Shown here piece by piece: positions 11,015 through 38,763 of a stretch of DNA of 48,435 nucleotides. The stretch comes from Escherichia phage EcoIv28_Lewi. A program made the position numbers and the translations under genes. Under the pieces are notes generated by a model. It ran no database searches. It was not told where the DNA came from and worked only from the letters and a program-made list of their open reading frames with translations. Location: the sequence record OX461087; one strand, written 5' to 3'. Positions within the stretch are counted from its first letter, which is position 1. Every line of letters starts with the position of its first letter.

Positions 11015-11110
11015 ATACTATGCGCTCGGTGTAGATTGGTCAAGTGTGGTGATGCAGGTTTATCAACATTAATAATAAATATTGACGTAGAAATGGTGGT
11101 GATGTAGATT
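11015..11110. promoter_or_regulatory. divergent promoters
   Basis: Minus: TTGACC-N17-TAGTAT (11043..11015); plus: TTGACG-N17-TAGATT (11082..11110); extra TGTAGATT copies nearby. Confidence 0.45.
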
Positions 11111-11145
11111 TAACTAAACCGGAAATTCTTATGTGAGGTGATGAG

Positions 11146-11321
11146 ATGTTTGAAGCATACAAATCAAAAATAACTGGCAGCACATACCTGTTTGCGCCAG
11201 CAAATGGTCTGGTTTTTGTTTGTCGTGGCAAAGACAACACCGATGAAACGAGAATGACAAAAGACGACATAGATATGTATGTCAGAAATGGAGTTATGGA
11301 AGAAGCGGAGTGTCCAGCATG
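11146..11321 (+). CDS. small hypothetical protein (58 aa)
   Basis: ATG after GAGGTGATGAG RBS; coupled by ATGA overlap to next gene. Confidence 0.4.
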
Positions 11322-11501
11322 AGCCATACAAGACCAAGAGTTAACAAAAAAGTAAGAGAAGAGGCAATAGAGCACTTTAAAAGCCACCATGGAAATCACT
11401 CACACGAGGTGATTGTTGGTATAGATGTAGAGAAGATGAAAGAAACCGCAAAACACTACAAAGGAAGGGTTAATCTTGCGGATTATGGAATAGCGGAATA
11501 A
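11319..11501 (+). CDS. small hypothetical protein (60 aa)
   Basis: Track ORF 11310..11501, ATG at 11319. Confidence 0.45.
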   Translation: MSHTRPRVNKKVREEAIEHFKSHHGNHSHEVIVGIDVEKMKETAKHYKGRVNLADYGIAE

Positions 11502-11505
11502 GCAT

Positions 11506-11536
11506 AAGCCCTCGAATGAGGGCTTTATTTTTATCT
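11506..11536. terminator. bidirectional rho-independent terminator
   Basis: Hairpin AAGCCCTC-GAAT-GAGGGCTT plus T-run between convergent genes. Confidence 0.6.
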
Positions 11537-12955
11537 CCTGCGACGGATTAGCATTCCGCTACCGCGTTGAACGATGTGGTCTCCAAGTCCATAGCGTAAA
11601 CTATCAATCGCGTGATTGTATTTATCAACTATGTCAGGGAGTATGTTGCCTGTTAACTTATCAACCTTATAGCTATACATTGTCATCTCTTCAATGACGT
11701 GTTTACATCTTGAGTGTACGTAAATCCTGTCGCACCCACGAAGCCACGTAATCCCGTCCTCAATGCTCCCAGGCCATTTTGCGCACGGATGAATATCGAA
11801 TCCAGATCGGCGTATATGGCTTATTGTTTCAGGCCTTGCGCAATCCCCATACCATCTGTACTTCTCTGAATTTGGGAATGCTGAGCGCATCGCTTCTGGC
11901 GTGTCAGTTATCTCAAGGCCAACCTTTGCAAAGTCACGATAGATATATAGATTTCTGCGCCCATCTCCCAAATCTTCTACATATGATTCTGTTGCTGCGG
12001 TTGCATCCTGAGAAAAACCAAAGTCAATGCCATAATATGGACCTCCCCATTCTGGAGATGGCTCGAAGTCCAGCGTTTGCCATTTTCCGCCAAGCACGGC
12101 CTCTTCGGAACGCTTGTTGAATAACCCTTCATACACCCACAGATAGCGATCATAATCCACCGCCTTCATCTGGTTCATGTGCTGTTTAAGTTCTTCCGTG
12201 AACCACGGGTTGTGGACGTAGTTAACATTAACAACAACGATGTCATCATCCTGATATATGCCATCAACCATCTTGTCGATGTAAGGCTCAACAAAGTTAG
12301 TCCACGTTGGGTCCGTCTCTTTATTAGGGTTAAAAACAATGATAATTTCAGAGCCAGCCGCACGGACTGTTGGGATAAGCGTATCCCATGACACCTGACT
12401 GATGTTTTCGGATTCTTCACAGAAGACATCCGTAAGGCCAGCCATGCCCTTGATTGCGGTTATGTTTCGCCAAAGGCCACGAAAAACAAACTTTGATCTC
12501 GTTGTGTGGTGTGTTATCTCGCCATCCACGCAACGATATTCCTGAGTGTGCCCCTTCCTGTTTATCTCATCGACCAGCTCGGCATAGCTTGATTCTTTGA
12601 TTGAGTTCTGTATCTCACGGAAGCATCCGACGCGGCTGTTGCGGAATCTTGCCTTTTCTATCAGGTAAGACACGACGTTAGCCGTCTTTCCGCTTCCCCT
12701 ACCACCATAGAACACTTTGAAGCGACGAGGGTAAAGCAATAGCTCCATCCGCTTTGGTATCAGAATTGTTGGCTCTTCGTTTGTTTCCGAGACACCTGTT
12801 GCTGTCATTTTCAGGCGCTTTATAACATTAGGCGTTCCATCAGCAAGAAGTTTATCAACAATGCCAAACACAGCAGACTCAGGCTTTGCAGTTGAGTTGC
12901 CAACTACCTGTTCAAGTTTTTCGATTGCCACACTTGAGAGTCTTTTTCTAGCCAT
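11531..12955 (-). CDS. terminase large subunit
   Basis: 474 aa; Walker A-like GGRGSGKT; ATPase plus nuclease architecture. Confidence 0.9.
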   Translation of the reverse strand: MARKRLSSVAIEKLEQVVGNSTAKPESAVFGIVDKLLADGTPNVIKRLKMTATGVSETNEEPTILIPKRMELLLYPRRFKVFYGGRGSGKTANVVSYLIEKARFRNSRVGCFREIQNSIKESSYAELVDEINRKGHTQEYRCVDGEITHHTTRSKFVFRGLWRNITAIKGMAGLTDVFCEESENISQVSWDTLIPTVRAAGSEIIIVFNPNKETDPTWTNFVEPYIDKMVDGIYQDDDIVVVNVNYVHNPWFTEELKQHMNQMKAVDYDRYLWVYEGLFNKRSEEAVLGGKWQTLDFEPSPEWGGPYYGIDFGFSQDATAATESYVEDLGDGRRNLYIYRDFAKVGLEITDTPEAMRSAFPNSEKYRWYGDCARPETISHIRRSGFDIHPCAKWPGSIEDGITWLRGCDRIYVHSRCKHVIEEMTMYSYKVDKLTGNILPDIVDKYNHAIDSLRYGLGDHIVQRGSGMLIRRRR

Positions 12956-13463
12956 GATTACAAAACTCCCCGTGATTTTTCTCTCTTTCTTCCATTATCT
13001 TTTTGACTGCATCTTCAATGTTGGCGAACCGGCCAAGGTTAACCATCCTGCCATTTATATTTAATCTTGCCATCCACTTGCATCTTGATTTATCCCAATA
13101 CACACCCTTAACCCCTGATGTGTTGTTTGCCTGTAGCTTTTTGTTGTAACCATTTTGCTGATGGTCAGCCTCTCGCAGATTAACAAAACGATTATCAAGC
13201 GTATTGTTGTTTATGTGGTCTATTTCTTTTTCAGGCCAACTACCAGTCATGTAAAGCCAAGCCAGCCTGTGCGATCTATACCACTTTCTTCCAAAATGAA
13301 TATAGTGATACGGTCGCTTGCTACCAACGGAGCCGCATAATTTTATTGTTCCTGCCGGCTTCCCGGGTTTAGCCCTTCCCTGCTTGTGTGGGTTTTTCCA
13401 TGTAAAAATTCCGGTTTCAGGATTGTAATCAAGGATGTGTTTTAATTCTGCTTGCGTAAGCAT
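12948..13463 (-). CDS. HNH-AP2 homing endonuclease between terS and terL
   Basis: Motif EIDHINNNTLDNRFVNLRE plus AP2-like C-terminus; stop overlaps terL start (ATGGCTAG). Confidence 0.8.
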   Translation of the reverse strand: MLTQAELKHILDYNPETGIFTWKNPHKQGRAKPGKPAGTIKLCGSVGSKRPYHYIHFGRKWYRSHRLAWLYMTGSWPEKEIDHINNNTLDNRFVNLREADHQQNGYNKKLQANNTSGVKGVYWDKSRCKWMARLNINGRMVNLGRFANIEDAVKKIMEEREKNHGEFCNHG

Positions 13464-13562
13464 ATATAGATTCCTCATCAGGGCATCATTGAAGTGAATG
13501 CGGCAGGCGGTGATGAGTCGCTTTTCGGGTGCCCCCTAGCCGCATTGATTATTATAAATCAG

Positions 13563-14006
13563 TTACTGTTGCTGCTCCAGTAATTTCTCCAGCCGCTCAA
13601 GTCTCGCGGCGAGTTCGGTTAACTCTTTCACGTCAAGACCAACCTTAATCATAGACACAACCTGAGACGCAACATCAATTGGTAGTTCTCCACTGGAGAC
13701 AGATTGAATGACGTCCTCTATCTGCTCAACTGGAGTGGCATCTTTGCGGTATTTAAAATTAACCGGAGGTGCCATGCTTTTTTGCACGGGGCTGATGCGC
13801 AGGAATATCTCCTTCAGCATCTGCACGCCTTGAGTCGGGTTTTCCTCAGTCATCCTGATTGACGTCCTGATGAATGCGTCAAGGAATTCCTCCTCTCCAA
13901 GCCCGCATCGCTTTAATGCTTCAATAAGCCTGTTTCTGTAGCTTAATCCTCTGCCAGCAGGCTGGTATTCAGAGGAAAATTTCATTACAGGGTTTGGATT
14001 AGCCAT
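13563..14006 (-). CDS. terminase small subunit (putative)
   Basis: 147 aa immediately upstream of terL, coiled-coil C-terminus. Confidence 0.55.
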   Translation of the reverse strand: MANPNPVMKFSSEYQPAGRGLSYRNRLIEALKRCGLGEEEFLDAFIRTSIRMTEENPTQGVQMLKEIFLRISPVQKSMAPPVNFKYRKDATPVEQIEDVIQSVSSGELPIDVASQVVSMIKVGLDVKELTELAARLERLEKLLEQQQ

Positions 14007-14051: not shown

Positions 14052-14079
14052 ATAAAAAAGAACCCGCACAAGGCGGGTT
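14052..14079 (-). terminator. rho-independent terminator
   Basis: On minus strand AACCCGCC-loop-GCGGGTT followed by CTTTTTTATC. Confidence 0.5.
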
Positions 14080-14123: not shown

Positions 14124-14297
14124 TTATTGTACACCATCATTATCGCGCTTGCCAGCATAGCACCATGCATTTTCTGTTCGCGTCTGCACATGAACGATTT
14201 CAAGCGCATCAGGGAATGTCTTTGCAACCTTTGCGATGAAGTCATCCAGTTCGTGCTGTTTGGCAAGTTGCCAGACTTTCTGTTTAGTTGTTTGCAT
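14124..14297 (-). CDS. small hypothetical protein
   Basis: Track ORF 14124..14363 trimmed to internal ATG; start uncertain. Confidence 0.3.
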   Translation of the reverse strand: MQTTKQKVWQLAKQHELDDFIAKVAKTFPDALEIVHVQTRTENAWCYAGKRDNDGVQ

Positions 14298-14455
14298 TAG
14301 CGAAAGCTCTCGTAGAGCACATGCACTTAATGTCGTGCACACCATTATCAGGAACAACCTCAATGTAATTACCTATTTGTACCATCATGTAGTGACACGC
14401 CTTCATGCTGTTCCAGTGTCGTTCCCACATGTTTTGCATTTCGTCGCTTATATCG

Positions 14456-14776
14456 TTAAACATAATGCTGCCACTCCCTTTTAACCCATGCTACGCGATT
14501 CTTGTTGGTGTGAATTGCCCCGTCAATACATTCCAAATGGTATGAGTTATCTGCGTTATTAAGCGGGTAATCACGGCTTAGTCCGGCCTTAATGAATTGC
14601 GATTTCATTAACTGCAATGCCATATCCCTTACCGGGAATCTGCAACCTTTGCTTGCAAGGTATGAAAATAAAGAACCGCAAAGCCCGACGCGACGACTAA
14701 ATGGCTCACCTTCTGGTGCGCCAGCATCAATCCAGTCGGAATATGCTTCATAAAACTCAGCTAATTGATTAAACAT
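14456..14776 (-). CDS. hypothetical protein (~106 aa)
   Basis: Track ORF trimmed to ATG with AGGAG RBS. Confidence 0.45.
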   Translation of the reverse strand: MFNQLAEFYEAYSDWIDAGAPEGEPFSRRVGLCGSLFSYLASKGCRFPVRDMALQLMKSQFIKAGLSRDYPLNNADNSYHLECIDGAIHTNKNRVAWVKREWQHYV

Positions 14777-14938
14777 AATGCACAACTCCTGCAATGGCAG
14801 CAACCAGTGCCAGCATATAAACAGCAAGGAATATTTTAGCGCCAGTGGTGTATCGGCGTCGTTTGTGTTTGGTCATAATATGCCTCCACTAAAGCGTGCG
14901 CCACATATAGCGCACTGATAATTAATATGAACGGGTAG

Positions 14939-15220
14939 CTATTCACTTTTAGCCAGGCTTTCGAATTGCTGGTTGGCGGTGTCGTACTCATCAGGAATTA
15001 GTGCCTGCTTATCTCGCAAAGATTCTTCAAGCTCTGCAATTCGACACCCATAATCAAGGGCTTGGTCCTGCATGTTTTTGATTTCTTCAAGTAGCTCATC
15101 GCATTTAGCTTGAAGAACTGCGTAATCAGCATACTTAACATATGAGCCAGAGATGTCATCACCCTCTGTATTAAGCCACGCGTCGTTGCAGTTTACTGCG
15201 TATGTTTTAACTTTACTCAT
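14939..15220 (-). CDS. hypothetical protein (93 aa)
   Basis: Track ORF, GGGGG RBS; N-terminus MSKVKTY shared with neighbour. Confidence 0.45.
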   Translation of the reverse strand: MSKVKTYAVNCNDAWLNTEGDDISGSYVKYADYAVLQAKCDELLEEIKNMQDQALDYGCRIAELEESLRDKQALIPDEYDTANQQFESLAKSE

Positions 15221-15237
15221 ACCATAACCCCCATAAT

Positions 15238-15450
15238 TTATTCGTGATAACCATCTTCTTCAAACTCAATCTTTGCGATTTTCAGCGCATCATCATCGGT
15301 GATGTCAACCGCTTTGAATTTGCACTTTGCAAGCACCAGACACCCCGACAGCAAAAGCCACTTATTCCACCAGTGTGCTCGCTTGATTGTTCTGGATTCG
15401 TACATTTTGTTTTGTACAAACCAGAACTCGTATGTTTTCACTTTTGCCAT
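15238..15450 (-). CDS. hypothetical protein (70 aa), N-terminal paralog of 14939..15220
   Basis: Track ORF; N-terminus MAKVKTY. Confidence 0.45.
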   Translation of the reverse strand: MAKVKTYEFWFVQNKMYESRTIKRAHWWNKWLLLSGCLVLAKCKFKAVDITDDDALKIAKIEFEEDGYHE

Positions 15451-15848
15451 ATCATCACCATTAGAAATAAACCTGCTGAATCGATGTCAAAATACGATAA
15501 TCAGCTCATCCATTACTCTACGCTTACAATCACCATTAAACACACGCACAACGCGATTTACGCGTATAGATTCCATTGCGTTGCGTGCCTGCTTGCTCAT
15601 AAAGTTCTGCGCGCCAACGTGACCGAGTTCTTGTTCCAGATTTTCGCGGCGATAGATAGTTTTGCCATGTGTTAAACCTCACAAGAGTTAATGATTGCCT
15701 TAATGCGGCGACGATACCACTGCATGATGTGTTCGTTATGCCAGCTACTCATTTTGTTACTCCTTATACCCTGATTTAGAAACTGCCACTGCGATAATGA
15801 TGAACGCCACGACAACAAGACTGGCGATAAGTTCGAATGCTGCGCCTG

Positions 15849-16043
15849 TCATTTCTTCACCAACTCCCATTTAACGCCATGTGCGTCTTTTTCGTTGGAA
15901 ATCTTACCAATGACTTCGTACCCTCTATCTCCGGTTAAAAATACAATCCCTTGCTCAGGTAAGTAATCGTGGCAATCATATTCTTTACCAACCGTCACAT
16001 AACGGCATGACTCTTCTACCTCGATGGCTTTAACTCTTGTCAT
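15849..16043 (-). CDS. hypothetical protein (64 aa)
   Basis: Track ORF. Confidence 0.45.
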   Translation of the reverse strand: MTRVKAIEVEESCRYVTVGKEYDCHDYLPEQGIVFLTGDRGYEVIGKISNEKDAHGVKWELVKK

Positions 16044-16186
16044 TTGCTGAGTCCATACGCTGAGATTAAAGCCTGCATTGCTGCGTTCCAGAATGCTTCT
16101 GCAGGAATGCTGTTGTTTGTGCGGTCAACTGCAATGCGCGCCATAGCTTGTGCATCTTCCAATTCTTCACGGTCTTTGATTTTCAT
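16040..16186 (-). CDS. small hypothetical protein (~48 aa)
   Basis: ATG...TGA ORF with ATGA overlap to downstream gene; below track cutoff. Confidence 0.35.
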   Translation of the reverse strand: MKIKDREELEDAQAMARIAVDRTNNSIPAEAFWNAAMQALISAYGLSK

Positions 16187-16341
16187 TATGCGTACCTGTT
16201 ATATGAAAGTTTTTTACATGCGTAATATTGTTTTTCTGCATATGCAAAGGTCTTTCCAGTTTTCATCATCGCATCAATGAATTTGTGCGCGTCACCCTTT
16301 GCCTCGCAATACAGAGCTATTGCATATTTGGTAGGTTTCAT
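16186..16341 (-). CDS. small hypothetical protein (~51 aa), first gene of minus-strand small-gene operon
   Basis: ATG preceded by GAGGGTGAAGAG RBS, just downstream of a consensus promoter. Confidence 0.35.
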   Translation of the reverse strand: MKPTKYAIALYCEAKGDAHKFIDAMMKTGKTFAYAEKQYYACKKLSYNRYA

Positions 16342-16371
16342 CTCTTCACCCTCGGTTGTTCCGATGAACTC

Positions 16372-16400
16372 AATCTACATCAGTTGCGATTCTACGTCAA
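16372..16400 (-). promoter_or_regulatory. sigma70-like promoter TTGACG-N17-TAGATT
   Basis: Minus-strand -35 TTGACG (16400..16395) and -10 TAGATT (16377..16372), 17-nt spacer, ~30 nt upstream of first ORF. Confidence 0.5.
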
Positions 16401-16419
16401 CAGGAATGCGTTAAAAACG

Positions 16420-16740
16420 TGCTCGTGGGGTAAATTTTTGCCCGTGGGGCAGGTCGTGGGGCAGGTTGGTTGCCCCACGTTTTTCATCGTAAATCATTGA
16501 TTTGAATGTTTTTATTTTTCGTGGGTAAAAAGGGGCAGATTTCATACCCATCCCCTTATAAATATATTCAAATAATCCATTTGTTAATATTATGTTAATT
16601 ACTATCTATAATATGAATAATAATATTACCCATTAACCCAAATAATAATAATTTTATTATATTACATATACTTAGATGAAGTTTTCGTGGGGCAGGTTGG
16701 TTGCCCCACGTTAACCCAATTTACCCCTTTTGCAGATTTT
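16420..16740. repeat. iteron-like repeats, paired 25-bp palindromes and AT-rich spacer (putative replication origin)
   Basis: CGTGGGG(C/T)A repeated at least 5 times; identical CGTGGGGCAGGTTGGTTGCCCCACG at 16455..16479 and 16686..16710; ~180 bp of very AT-rich DNA between. Confidence 0.4.
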
Positions 16741-16806: not shown

Positions 16807-17079
16807 ATGAGCAATCACGGTGTATTATTAAAGCGCAAATTAAACAAACATGGTCGTGGTGCTGGGTGGGTTGCATCATCAAAGTCAACCACTGGGTACT
16901 ACGGTGTTGATTACCACAAGGCATCAAAAAAATTCAGAGCGAGAGTGATGGTACTCAAGAAGAGATATGAGCTTGGCATGTTTGAAACGGCAGAGGAAGC
17001 AAACGCTGCAGTTTTGAGAGCCAAGGAATGGTTATCAGAAAATCCTCATGAGAAATTTGAAACAGAGTACGAGGTTTAA
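16807..17079 (+). CDS. stand-alone AP2-domain DNA-binding protein
   Basis: GYYGV...FRARV...LGMFETAEEANAA pattern like the AP2 tail of the HNH genes, with no nuclease part. Confidence 0.6.
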   Translation: MSNHGVLLKRKLNKHGRGAGWVASSKSTTGYYGVDYHKASKKFRARVMVLKKRYELGMFETAEEANAAVLRAKEWLSENPHEKFETEYEV

Positions 17080-18633
17080 ATGATTACAGCTCAAGATATA
17101 TTCAACGAAGCAAGGGAGTTAAAAGTATCTCCGGCTCGCGTTGCCTTCCATCATGGCATGATACCAAGCTCAAATATGTGGCTTGACATCAAGGAAGGCA
17201 AGGAGCGTGATGTAACGTACTCAGAAACAGAACTCACCAGTGAGCACCGGACTGATTTGCTGTCTCGTTATGCAATCGCTGCAGCTCGTGCCGTTCAGTT
17301 CCCAATAAATACATCGTTCATGCATTTACTTGGGTGCGTTGCCAGCGCAATGACGAGAAACTTTAGCGTTGAGTATTACCATTCAGAACTTCCAGTTTCT
17401 CTTTACGTGGTTACTTCTCAGCCTCCATCAGCAGGGAAAACCGCCATCAACTCAATGCACATGAATCCGGTGAAGATTGAATATGACAACCTTTCCAAAA
17501 AGATGGAAAAGCAGATCATAAAAATAAATCTTCGCATTGAAGAGTTGATGAAGGCATACAAAGAGGCAAGCAACCAAAATGCAAAGGCACTAATCGGCGA
17601 TGATATTGCTCGCGAAAAAGAGAAGTTGGAGGAGCTTTATACAATTACATATCCACTGACGGACGCAACGCCGGAGGCTGTTCAGCATCAAGCCATTCAT
17701 GAAGGTGGATTTTTTAATCTGATAAGTGACGAGGCAAGCGTTCTTAACACATGTCTTGGCCTCTCTTACGGAAAGGAAGGTGGAAAGGCAAACGCAGAAG
17801 TCATCCTGAAGGGATGGGATGGAGGATTCATTGGTTCTGCTCGTGTTGGTCGTGGCGTTTCATCTGGTTACGTGCTTGGAAATATAAGTGTGATTGCTCA
17901 GGATGAAAGTATTGATGCCATTCTTGCCGCTGGCGACAGGGGTAACGGTCTTTCTGAACGTTTCCTGATGTTGCGAGAGCAATCAATGCTTGGCTATCGC
18001 GAACACTGGGACATGGTTAATGACTGCCCTGTAAGCAAGCCAATGCCAGACAGCTTGAGGTCGGAATATGCAAGATTTATACATAATGTTGTGTCAGCAG
18101 AAAAAACAAAACTGACGCTTCACAATGACTCAGCAAGAATGATCGGCCTGTTACGAAATCAGTGGGAGAAAAACTTCCTTCCCGGTGGTAAGTGGGACCA
18201 CGTTCTTCTTCGTGGCGCGATGGGTAAAGCTGATAAGCAAATAATCCGTCTGGCAGCAATATTTCACGCTGCTGAAAACTGGTGCGATGGAGGAAGGCGT
18301 TCAAAGATTATCGGTGAAAATGAAATTAGTCGCGCCATCAGTGTTTATGATGCACTGACAAAAACGTTCACTGATGCTGTTGAATCAAATGGATATGCTG
18401 GTGAGCGTTCTGAATTTGATGTTGTTGCAGAAAAGCTACGCTCTGCCGCTCAGAAAGGGAAAAATAGCGTAACGGTGAAGTGGCTTTATGATTCACTTAA
18501 AAACGTACGACCATTCAAAGGGATACCTAAAATTTACGACCGACTCAGGTCAAGTGTATTACCATCTCTGGAGGAGGATGGTTACTGCGTATTTATCGGA
18601 AATACTGTTCACATAAATCCGAGGTTGAAATGA
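17080..18633 (+). CDS. P-loop NTPase, putative replication protein
   Basis: 517 aa, Walker A-like PPSAGKT; first large gene of the replication block. Confidence 0.5.
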   Translation: MITAQDIFNEARELKVSPARVAFHHGMIPSSNMWLDIKEGKERDVTYSETELTSEHRTDLLSRYAIAAARAVQFPINTSFMHLLGCVASAMTRNFSVEYYHSELPVSLYVVTSQPPSAGKTAINSMHMNPVKIEYDNLSKKMEKQIIKINLRIEELMKAYKEASNQNAKALIGDDIAREKEKLEELYTITYPLTDATPEAVQHQAIHEGGFFNLISDEASVLNTCLGLSYGKEGGKANAEVILKGWDGGFIGSARVGRGVSSGYVLGNISVIAQDESIDAILAAGDRGNGLSERFLMLREQSMLGYREHWDMVNDCPVSKPMPDSLRSEYARFIHNVVSAEKTKLTLHNDSARMIGLLRNQWEKNFLPGGKWDHVLLRGAMGKADKQIIRLAAIFHAAENWCDGGRRSKIIGENEISRAISVYDALTKTFTDAVESNGYAGERSEFDVVAEKLRSAAQKGKNSVTVKWLYDSLKNVRPFKGIPKIYDRLRSSVLPSLEEDGYCVFIGNTVHINPRLK

Positions 18634-38686: not shown

Positions 38687-38763
38687 GGACGCGTAGCTTA
38701 ATTGGTTAAAGCAACCGACTCATAATCGGCTGATTGAAGGTTCAAATCCGTCCGTGTCCACCA
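38687..38763 (+). tRNA. tRNA, anticodon CAT (Met, or Ile if lysidine-modified)
   Basis: Hand-folded cloverleaf: acceptor GGACGCG/CGTGTCC, anticodon loop CTCATAA, T-loop TTCAAAT, encoded 3' CCA. Confidence 0.8.

Follow-up and report, generated by a model that had tools for sequence, protein, structure and literature searches.

Organization of the small-gene array

The genome of Escherichia phage EcoIv28_Lewi (sequence record OX461087) was analysed as a single window of 48,435 nucleotides (nt), in which positions 14124 to 16341 hold a run of very small open-reading frames (ORFs) on the minus strand, referred to here as the array. An original prediction, made from the letters alone, had described a long minus-strand operon of about ten tiny genes. 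The same-strand run of small ORFs was found as described, while the number of genes is 12 rather than about ten, because two ORFs of 23 and 37 amino acids (aa) are together one frameshifted DUF7540 gene. Genes are numbered from 5′ to 3′ along the minus strand, with g7 denoting the 37-aa ORF, and their coordinates are collected in Table 1. The cistrons are tightly packed, as 8 of the 11 junctions overlap or have a gap of at most 4 nt. The ATGA and TAATG overlaps that had been proposed were indeed read at the junctions, TAATG once (g1/g2) and ATGA twice (g2/g3 and g3/g4), next to 8-nt overlaps at g10/g11 and g11/g12, a 14-nt overlap at g12/g13, and 3–4-nt gaps at g4/g5 and g5/DUF7540; the longer gaps in the array are three, of 17, 36, and 62 nt. 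With one promoter, one terminator, a single strand, and overlapping or abutting cistrons, the array has the layout of a single operon with translational coupling, for which one transcript is predicted.

For comparison, megablast searches with the region and with the first 25 kb of the window matched 170–212 phage records, with a best coverage of 60–69% at ~ 90% identity. Relatives found in this way include Shigella phage DS8, Salmonella phages IME207, Vi II-E1, Akira, and STGO-35-1, and Escherichia phages C1, swi2, and Bas79. Such 46–48-kb siphoviruses were grouped as "Skatevirus and relatives" in the BASEL completion paper, which described the group as markedly sensitive to restriction-modification systems. 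Related loci were collected from GenBank (7) and IMG/VR (30), and these 37 loci yielded 27 distinct related arrays delimited by the shared promoter and terminator motifs, or 28 arrays with that of the window. No transcriptome or proteome was found in the literature on the Skatevirus-like group.

The promoter of the array had been called a consensus promoter, which overstates it, because its hexamers match the consensus at 9 of 12 positions and promoter-like matches are no commoner in the region than in shuffled sequences (12 compared to 9.9). The promoter is nonetheless credible because of its conservation and because it belongs to a genome-wide family of motifs. The 11-mer TTGACGTAGAA on its −35 side was present in 35 of the 37 related loci, the whole promoter, TGATGTAGATT included, and the leader ending in CGAGGGTGAAGAG-ATG were conserved in an alignment of the window with the seven GenBank relatives, and in INT55 both were kept although the upstream DNA is unrelated. 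Within the window, TGATGTAGATT occurs 17 times at no more than one mismatch, compared to 1.2 copies expected. At least five of these copies have TTGAC[A/G] exactly 17 nt 5′ of TAGATT, and those that were traced lie just 5′ of small-gene and replication/recombination ORFs on the matching strand. The TGATGTAGATT copies appear to define a promoter class specific to the phage, whose −10 region is invariant and departs from the consensus, and the array promoter would thus be one member of a phage-wide class transcribed by host RNA polymerase. The Bas79 annotation includes no phage RNA polymerase.

At the opposite end, the terminator placed at ~ 14052 was confirmed as a clear stem-loop with a T-run that is also found in relatives, with a matching pattern in 32 of the 37 related loci. 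It stands between the array and the TerS-like gene and TerL. For the g9–g10 spacer, an internal promoter was considered and rejected, as its −10-like TATATG reads TCTATG in most relatives. The same spacer holds a 43-nt intergenic element found in all 28 arrays at up to 8 errors, mostly with 0–3 substitutions, and relatives carry extra cassettes inserted immediately downstream of it. A hairpin is predicted in this element with a z-score of only −0.44, and an Rfam scan found no RNA family within the array.

Table 1 Features of the array and of the neighbouring DNA in the window
Feature	Coordinates	Strand	Description
Array promoter	16372..16400	minus	TTGACG, 17-nt spacer, TAGATT; conserved 11-mer TGATGTAGATT
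Leader			3′ of array promoter; conserved ...CGAGGGTGAAGAG-ATG
g1	16186..16341	minus	51 aa; optional, 2/27 arrays; ATGAAA repeats on both sides; weak phrog_10840 match
g2	16040..16186	minus	48 aa; backbone, 25/27 arrays; phrog_2180
g3	15849..16043	minus	64 aa; optional, 3/27 arrays
g4	15757..15852	minus	31 aa; backbone, 27/27 arrays; hydrophobic run FELIASLVVVAFIIIAVAV
g5	15672..15752	minus	26 aa, MSSWHNEHIMQWYRRRIKAIINSCEV; Stp family by sequence; optional, 20/27 arrays; strong ribosome-binding site TAAGGAG
DUF7540 gene	15487..15668	minus	backbone; 60 aa in relatives; 1-nt deletion here
23-aa ORF	15597–15668	minus	part of DUF7540 gene
37-aa ORF (g7)	15487–15600	minus	part of DUF7540 gene
g8	15238..15450	minus	70 aa; backbone, 27/27 arrays; phrog_10786
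g9	14939..15220	minus	93 aa; coiled-coil; allele in highly polymorphic slot; phrog_23941
Intergenic element	14884..14926	minus	ATTAATTATCAGTGCGCTATATGTGGCGCACGCTTTAGTGGAG, 43 nt; 8-bp hairpin 14896–14915; GGAG ribosome-binding site of g10
g10	14769..14876	minus	35 aa; backbone, 27/27 arrays; phrog_9340; basic N-terminus KHKRRR, then hydrophobic helix
g11	14456..14776	minus	106 aa; optional, 9/27 arrays
g12	14284..14463	minus	59 aa; backbone, 27/27 arrays; phrog_5407
g13	14124..14297	minus	57 aa; backbone, 27/27 arrays; DUF7334 (PF24022), 132 bits, cut-off 27
Intrinsic terminator	14052..14079	minus	AACCCGCCTTGTGCGGGTT then CTTTTTTATC; stem-loop and T-run 14061–14079, tail to ~ 14052
TerS-like gene	13563–14006	minus	left of array
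HNH-AP2 endonuclease	12948–13478	minus	HNH_3 and AP2, homing-endonuclease type; between TerS-like gene and TerL
TerL	11531–12955	minus	left of array
Divergent control region	16411–16720		right of array
AP2-like gene	16807–17079	plus	right of control region
DUF3987 helicase	17080–18633	plus	after AP2-like gene
TGATGTAGATT sites	include 1654, 4907, 11004, 11100, 23296, 36053, 36523, 38247, 41197	plus
TGATGTAGATT site	16372–16382	minus	in array promoter

Frame-specific conservation of the small ORFs

The ratio of nonsynonymous to synonymous differences per site (pN/pS) was calculated for ten ORFs as a pooled Nei–Gojobori estimate over up to 27 related arrays. In the called frame it was 0.18 for g2, 0.27 for g3, 0.23 for g4, 0.15 for g5, 0.08 for g7, 0.25 for g8, 0.41 for g10, 0.37 for g11, 0.19 for g12, and 0.11 for g13, compared to values of 0.68–2.7 or higher in the two alternative frames of the same ORFs. 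Since purifying selection is confined to the called frame, even the ORFs of 26, 31, and 35 aa evolve as proteins, and the small ORFs of the array are real genes. The start of g4 was placed at the ATG overlapping in ATGA at 15852 and not at 15870; phrog_35977 covers residues 7–37 of the longer ORF.

Among other ORFs in or beside the array, the two longest plus-strand ORFs antisense to it were rejected as genes, as stops interrupt them in 21 of 21 and 23 of 27 near-full-length matches from relatives. A third such ORF has stops in 5 of 23 matches, and a fourth has too few long matches for a judgement. A 51-aa ORF at 14836–14991 contains stop codons in relatives, and a 46-aa ORF at 16411–16551 (minus strand) is probably non-coding, with stops in five related loci (L003, L011, L007/L026, and L030). 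The latter ORF crosses CCCCACG repeats, is a called coding sequence in DS8 and Bas79, and has counterparts at L001 4230–4364 and L006 2205–2345.

A Stp-family peptide in the array

The statement that none of the array genes is recognisable did not hold, as Stp (PF08133), DUF7540, and DUF7334 all exceed the Pfam curated cut-offs. The g5 peptide matched PF08133, the "anticodon nuclease activator" family, with 31.0 bits compared to a curated cut-off of 25 (E = 2.3e-7), and PHROG family phrog_6763 with E = 7e-13. Both g5 and Stp of phage T4, as read from the T4 record, have 26 residues. Over the first 18 residues the two peptides share 11 identical and 4 conservative positions, and within residues 4–14 of g5, WHNEHIMQWYR, they share 8 identical and 3 conservative positions (both counted by hand), while the C-terminal 8 residues diverge. 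In T4, the function of Stp resides in the N-proximal 18 residues, loss-of-function mutations fall mostly in residues 4–14, and removal of the last 8 codons lowers activity only moderately (PMC3014915). Related arrays contained 16 variants of the peptide, of which the 26-residue forms have HNEHIM, YR, and IK invariant, and HNEH-M-YR-K remains invariant when T4 Stp is added to the 26-residue variants of the phage group. By these sequence comparisons, g5 is a member of the Stp family. T4 Stp blocks the type IC enzymes EcoprrI and EcoR124I and not those of type IA, and this inhibition thereby activates the latent PrrC tRNA-Lys anticodon nuclease (PMC3014915).

By tblastn, 186 phage records matched at least 80% of the peptide's length, with no feature under most of the matches listed; RefSeq names a Stp peptide in STGO-35-1. 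Annotation of this part of the array varies among relatives. Stp is fused to a frameshifted g4 in ST1UNAM, its start is called at an upstream TTG in STGO-35-1, and in IME207 the start of g8 is called at an internal GTG though an ATG (MEKVKTY) is present. The sites of annotation problems in relatives are L003 3292–3471, L004 2297–2419, L002 1232–1432, and L004 856–1035.

Backbone genes, cassette slots, and junction repeats

The 28 arrays range from 1.7 to 4.6 kb in length and encode 39 protein clusters. Their flanks are constant in related genomes, with the helicase on one side and the TerS-like gene and TerL on the other, and the gene sets between them vary. A backbone of g2, g4, the DUF7540 gene, g8, g10, g12, and g13 is present in 25–27 of the 27 relatives' arrays, whereas g1, g3, g5, and g11 are optional in the window and g9 fills a highly polymorphic slot. 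In relatives, the g9 slot holds many mosaic alleles of 88–200 aa with a few C-terminal types, among them Ead/Ea22-like proteins (PF13935). Slots of the relatives also contain Lar (PF14354, in IME207 and L027), an N6 DNA methylase (PF02384, in L017), DUF7446, HNH endonucleases, and a small zinc-finger protein that carries a gyrase-inhibitor annotation. Judged from these family matches, the slots share a theme of anti-restriction genes together with genes as in lambdoid early regions, which fits the concept of an accessory region. The proposal that this is the kind of array where anti-defence genes sit was upheld as a general idea, by the Stp homologue here, by Lar and the N6 DNA methylase in relatives, and by the variable content between conserved flanks.

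All four optional cassettes (g1, g3, g5, and g11) have direct repeats of 6–12 nt on both sides that span the stop/start junction. The g11 cassette is a unit of 313 nt bordered by exact 12-nt direct repeats, CATTATGTTTAA, at 14769–14780 and 14456–14467. In 6 arrays with g11, two copies of CATTATGTTTAA are spaced by 313 nt, and in 12 arrays without it a single copy is followed directly by g12. Because g11 sits between the repeat copies, g10 and g11 both end in HYV and a stop, and g11 and g12 both start with MFN. In the same way, g3 is a 191-nt unit between two 8-nt direct repeats, AAATGACA, which hold the ATGA stop/start overlap, so that g3 and g4 both start with MT, and g1 lies between two copies of ATGAAA (6 nt), so that g1 and g2 both start with MK. 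The slot between g4 and the DUF7540 gene was found empty, with Stp, with an unrelated 52-aa gene that also starts with MSN, with both, or with a 971-nt insert, and was always bounded by a TAAC(A)AAATG-like sequence.

The 70-aa and 93-aa neighbours g8 and g9, which share the N-terminus M[S/A]KVKTY, had been described as N-terminal paralogs. The shared N-terminus is beyond chance, as 5 of 6 identities at residues 2–7 were obtained for any gene pair in only 0.03% of shuffles. The term paralogs was not upheld, since BLASTP aligned g8 and g9 over residues 1–7 only and the two belong to different PHROG families. Around their starts, the two genes have 32 identities in 55 positions with a solid core AAAGT.AAAACATACG, and alleles of the g9 slot have the common N-terminus MS[EKD]VK[RT]Y. 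The similarity of g8 and g9 is therefore better read as a probable footprint of a cassette junction than as paralogy. The junction repeats would be footprints or substrates of recombination that swaps cassettes while translational coupling is kept.

An apparently disrupted DUF7540 gene and a shortened g8

The 23-aa and 37-aa ORFs had been taken for two coupled genes and turned out to be the halves of one DUF7540 gene. In the seven GenBank relatives, the gene is a single ORF of 60 aa (66 aa in IME207) that begins with MAKTIYRREKLE and, in 6 of the 7, has the C-terminus ELI[IV]V[FL]. An intact ORF from a relative matched DUF7540 (PF24386) at positions 1–57 of 61 with 111 bits, and g7 matched positions 24–57 of 61 only. 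The window reads ATGGCAAAACTATC, and all 27 other arrays read ATGGCAAA[G/A]AC[T/C/A]AT; one base is absent from the A-run at 15660–15663, which has four A residues here and reads A5 or AAAGA in relatives. The window is alone in this among the 28 arrays, with the gene intact in the 27 relatives. With this base missing, the 23-aa "gene" is a start codon followed by out-of-frame sequence, and the 37-aa ORF is the in-frame C-terminal remainder from the conserved internal Met24. The copy in the window is thus a family member by descent and may be a pseudogene or may reflect a homopolymer sequencing error. The adjacent g8 is also altered, as a change of GAA to TAA results in the loss of its last 7 residues and of the ATGA overlap onto g9; in most relatives, g8 has 77–78 aa and overlaps the next gene by ATGA.

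Other products of the array

Two of the backbone products are probably single-pass membrane peptides, g4 and g10, the latter because a basic N-terminus is followed by a hydrophobic helix. Structure prediction and a fold search, proposed in the original prediction as a check, gave a fair AlphaFold2 model for g11, with five predicted helices and a mean predicted local distance difference test (pLDDT) score of 78.7, and no matching fold in the PDB (best E = 3.5). Compared to BFVD, the g11 model had TM-scores of 0.7–0.76 to uncharacterised proteins of many phages. The model of g13 was of low confidence, with a pLDDT of 63.8 and a predicted TM-score (pTM) of 0.36. Homology searches with g11 and g13 found nothing beyond close relatives within the phages' own group, at 58–100% identity and with uninformative names. 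Sequence searches of the PDB with the g11 profile and with g9 gave nothing significant, and an NCBIfam scan gave nothing meaningful.

No Pfam match was obtained for g9. Lar (PF14354) was rejected as its identity, as there was no Pfam match, there are no CxxC pairs, and the phrog_3592 match was weak (E = 1.2e-3). Ead/Ea22-like (PF13935) was rejected as well, as the profile was not matched. A PF13935 match is obtained for the allele of one relative, whose C-terminal part shares 83% identity with residues 43–90 of g9; g9 is therefore a mosaic that has only the coiled-coil tail in common with it. Labels given in one relative were also set aside for g12, called "holin" although it has no hydrophobic segment, and for g13, called "DUF5681" and matching DUF7334 here.

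Neighbouring genes and the control region

To the right of the array, the divergent control region contains two identical 28-nt palindromes, TCGTGGGGCAGGTTGGTTGCCCCACGTT, at 16454–16481 and 16685–16712, and further CGTGGGG half-sites. The sequence CGTGGGGCA occurs in 7 copies in the window compared to 0.23 expected, with 5 of them in the control region. Between the palindromes lies an AT-rich stretch that contains a good plus-strand promoter, TTAATA-17-TATAAT, at 16584–16612. The palindromes look like candidate operator sites; in the Vi II-E1 annotation, the palindrome appears only as a "repeat". The AP2-like gene, the first of the rightward replication operon, encodes a 90-aa product with a sub-threshold AP2 match (PF00847, 20.4 bits, E = 7e-4). 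This product is similar to the AP2 portion of the phage group's HNH endonucleases, is given as a pseudogene in the Vi II-E1 annotation, and is a candidate binder of the nearby palindromes.

To the left, a match to int-alpA RNA (RF02996; 42.6 bits, gathering score 35.8) was found at 13483–13546 on the minus strand, a short way downstream of the array, where a spacer separates the TerS-like gene from the HNH-AP2 endonuclease. HNH genes also appear in some relatives as optional cassettes, placed at the 3′ end of the array. A twin of the array promoter, with 22 of 23 specified bases the same, lies at 11082–11110 (plus strand) and heads a plus-strand mini-operon (11082–11530) encoding products of 58 aa (11146–11322) and 63 aa (11310–11501). 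The mini-operon ends in a hairpin and T-run at ~ 11503–11530, convergent with TerL, and a 119-aa minus-strand ORF that overlaps it (11040–11399) is probably spurious. The window contains one tRNA-Met (CAT) gene, at 38687–38763 (plus strand).

Interpretation and alternatives

Taken together, the array is best explained as the main accessory-gene operon of a Skatevirus-like siphovirus, with a single promoter, a backbone interrupted by slots, a Stp homologue, and turnover of cassettes at junction repeats, a reading to which we assign a probability of about 0.72. Host RNA polymerase would start at the conserved sigma-70-type promoter and produce one polycistronic mRNA of ~ 2.3 kb ending at the terminator, on which overlapping or near-abutting stop/start junctions would couple the translation of the twelve tiny genes. 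Early expression of the array is plausible. By analogy with T4 Stp, g5 would bind type IC complexes of the EcoprrI or EcoR124I type and block DNA cleavage, and in prrC hosts it would also unleash the tRNA-Lys anticodon nuclease. The remaining genes may have anti-defence or host-takeover roles. Cassettes would be gained and lost by recombination at the short repeats across the stop/start junction, and neighbouring genes would begin with the same residues because of it.

Several observations weigh against this reading. For 10 of the 12 genes no function could be assigned. Searches of the PDB by sequence (g9 and g11) and by fold (g11) gave no matches, and the only PADLOC match for ten array proteins was a marginal DndE for g9 (E = 0.0097) with no single stretch passing. 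Stp activity has been demonstrated in T4 alone, and g5 differs from T4 Stp at 7 of the first 18 residues. In a search of the window for Pnk, a P-loop scan gave one ORF (TerL) and tblastn with an approximate T4 Pnk query gave none, which is a weak test, and no tRNA-repair genes (Pnk or RNA ligase) are present in the Bas79 annotation; since none was found, Stp would be costly on prrC-positive hosts. The array promoter departs from the consensus at its hexamers, the array lies directly upstream of packaging genes on the same strand, and junction repeats as short as 6 or 8 nt would arise in part from any ATGA-type overlap, the 12-nt repeat alone being clearly beyond this.

The position of the array raises the alternative that its genes serve late functions tied to packaging or lysis, for instance as lysis-timing membrane peptides or packaging accessory proteins, rather than early anti-defence or takeover. 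Its place on the same strand as, and immediately 5′ of, the TerS-like gene and TerL would suit such a role, as would two products that resemble membrane peptides and the "holin" label of a g12 homologue. However, the array is set apart from the packaging genes by a terminator that is strong and conserved, the lysis cassette of Bas79 lies elsewhere, g12 lacks a hydrophobic segment, and the promoter is of a type common to small-gene and replication/recombination genes. Stp here and Lar and the DNA methylase in relatives would, moreover, be useful only if made before restriction acts, and we consider a late role unlikely. It is very unlikely that the array grew by tandem duplication with the M[S/A]KVKTY neighbours as diverged paralogs. 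Their seven-residue match exceeds chance and is conserved in relatives (MAKVKTY compared to MSEVK[TR]Y), but nothing aligns past it, two PHROG families are involved, and starts are equally shared by the plain insertion products g11/g12, g3/g4, and g1/g2, where the cassette is present or absent between two copies or one of a junction repeat. Least credible of all is the idea of a non-coding or regulatory leader upstream of the packaging genes, in which many of the tiny ORFs would be open by chance. Several of them are shorter than 40 aa, and the 46-aa and 51-aa ORFs in or beside the array are spurious, but ten ORFs, including those of 26, 31, and 35 aa, are under frame-specific purifying selection, PHROGs and Pfam families are matched, and the ORFs are intact across 27 relatives.

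The accessory-operon reading can be extended to a tentative and rather doubtful model, in which the array is a plug-in expression platform whose invariant promoter, leader, backbone, and hairpin keep a coupled frame while anti-defence cassettes are swapped in. Under this model, g1, g3, g11, and the g9 allele would be new anti-defence or defence-triggering factors, and PrrC-type guards would exert balancing selection on a phage without tRNA repair, which would account for the patchy occurrence of Stp.

Relation to known systems and significance

The T7 early region with ocr and the lambdoid ea/nin regions are comparable accessory regions, and lambdoid early regions share Ead/Ea22-like proteins with the arrays described here. 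The locus is typical of phage accessory operons, in that it combines an anti-restriction peptide of a known kind with cassette slots and an unchanging set of tiny backbone proteins. Conserved flanks and highly variable small genes are shared with the phage accessory regions and anti-defence hotspots described by Silas et al. (bioRxiv 10.1101/2023.04.06.535777), as is the presence of known anti-restriction genes (Stp, Lar, and methylase) alongside unknowns. The array differs from these regions in that more than half of it is a fixed backbone of tiny genes, with variability in a few slots bounded by stop/start junctions. Integron cassette arrays likewise have one promoter and promoterless cassettes gained or lost singly at defined junctions, whereas here there is no integrase, there are no attC-like sites, and the repeats are of 6–12 nt inside coding start/stop overlaps, so the likeness is in layout only. 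Exchange of cassettes by ordinary or microhomology-mediated recombination between co-infecting relatives is most likely.

Compared to T4 Stp, g5 has the same length and keeps the N-proximal segment (HNEH, M10, Y13-R14, and K18), and both genes are clustered with other very small genes, some of which encode membrane peptides. The carriers differ, a 48-kb siphovirus here and a T-even myovirus in the case of T4. The last 8 residues of the two peptides are unrelated, neither Pnk nor RNA ligase against PrrC damage was detected here, g5 is optional, and its activity is predicted. Stp homologues are also found in other small enterobacterial siphoviruses, the T1-like siphophages TLS and Citrobacter phage Stevie (PMC4319613). 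Stevie belongs to another lineage, has the gene at another locus, and encodes a polynucleotide kinase said to offset PrrC (PMC4319613), for which no counterpart was found here.

The practical value of the array findings is modest and lies in a short list of candidates for anti-defence and host-takeover screens, namely g1, g3, g11, the g9 alleles, and the tiny backbone genes. For the evolution of such arrays, cassette junctions explain how neighbouring phage genes can have the same first codons without paralogy, and the array provides a clean natural example. For the phage group, which is widespread and comprises siphoviruses of Salmonella, E. coli, and Shigella, the result points to a 26-aa gene, anti-restriction by family, that most genomes contain without an annotation.

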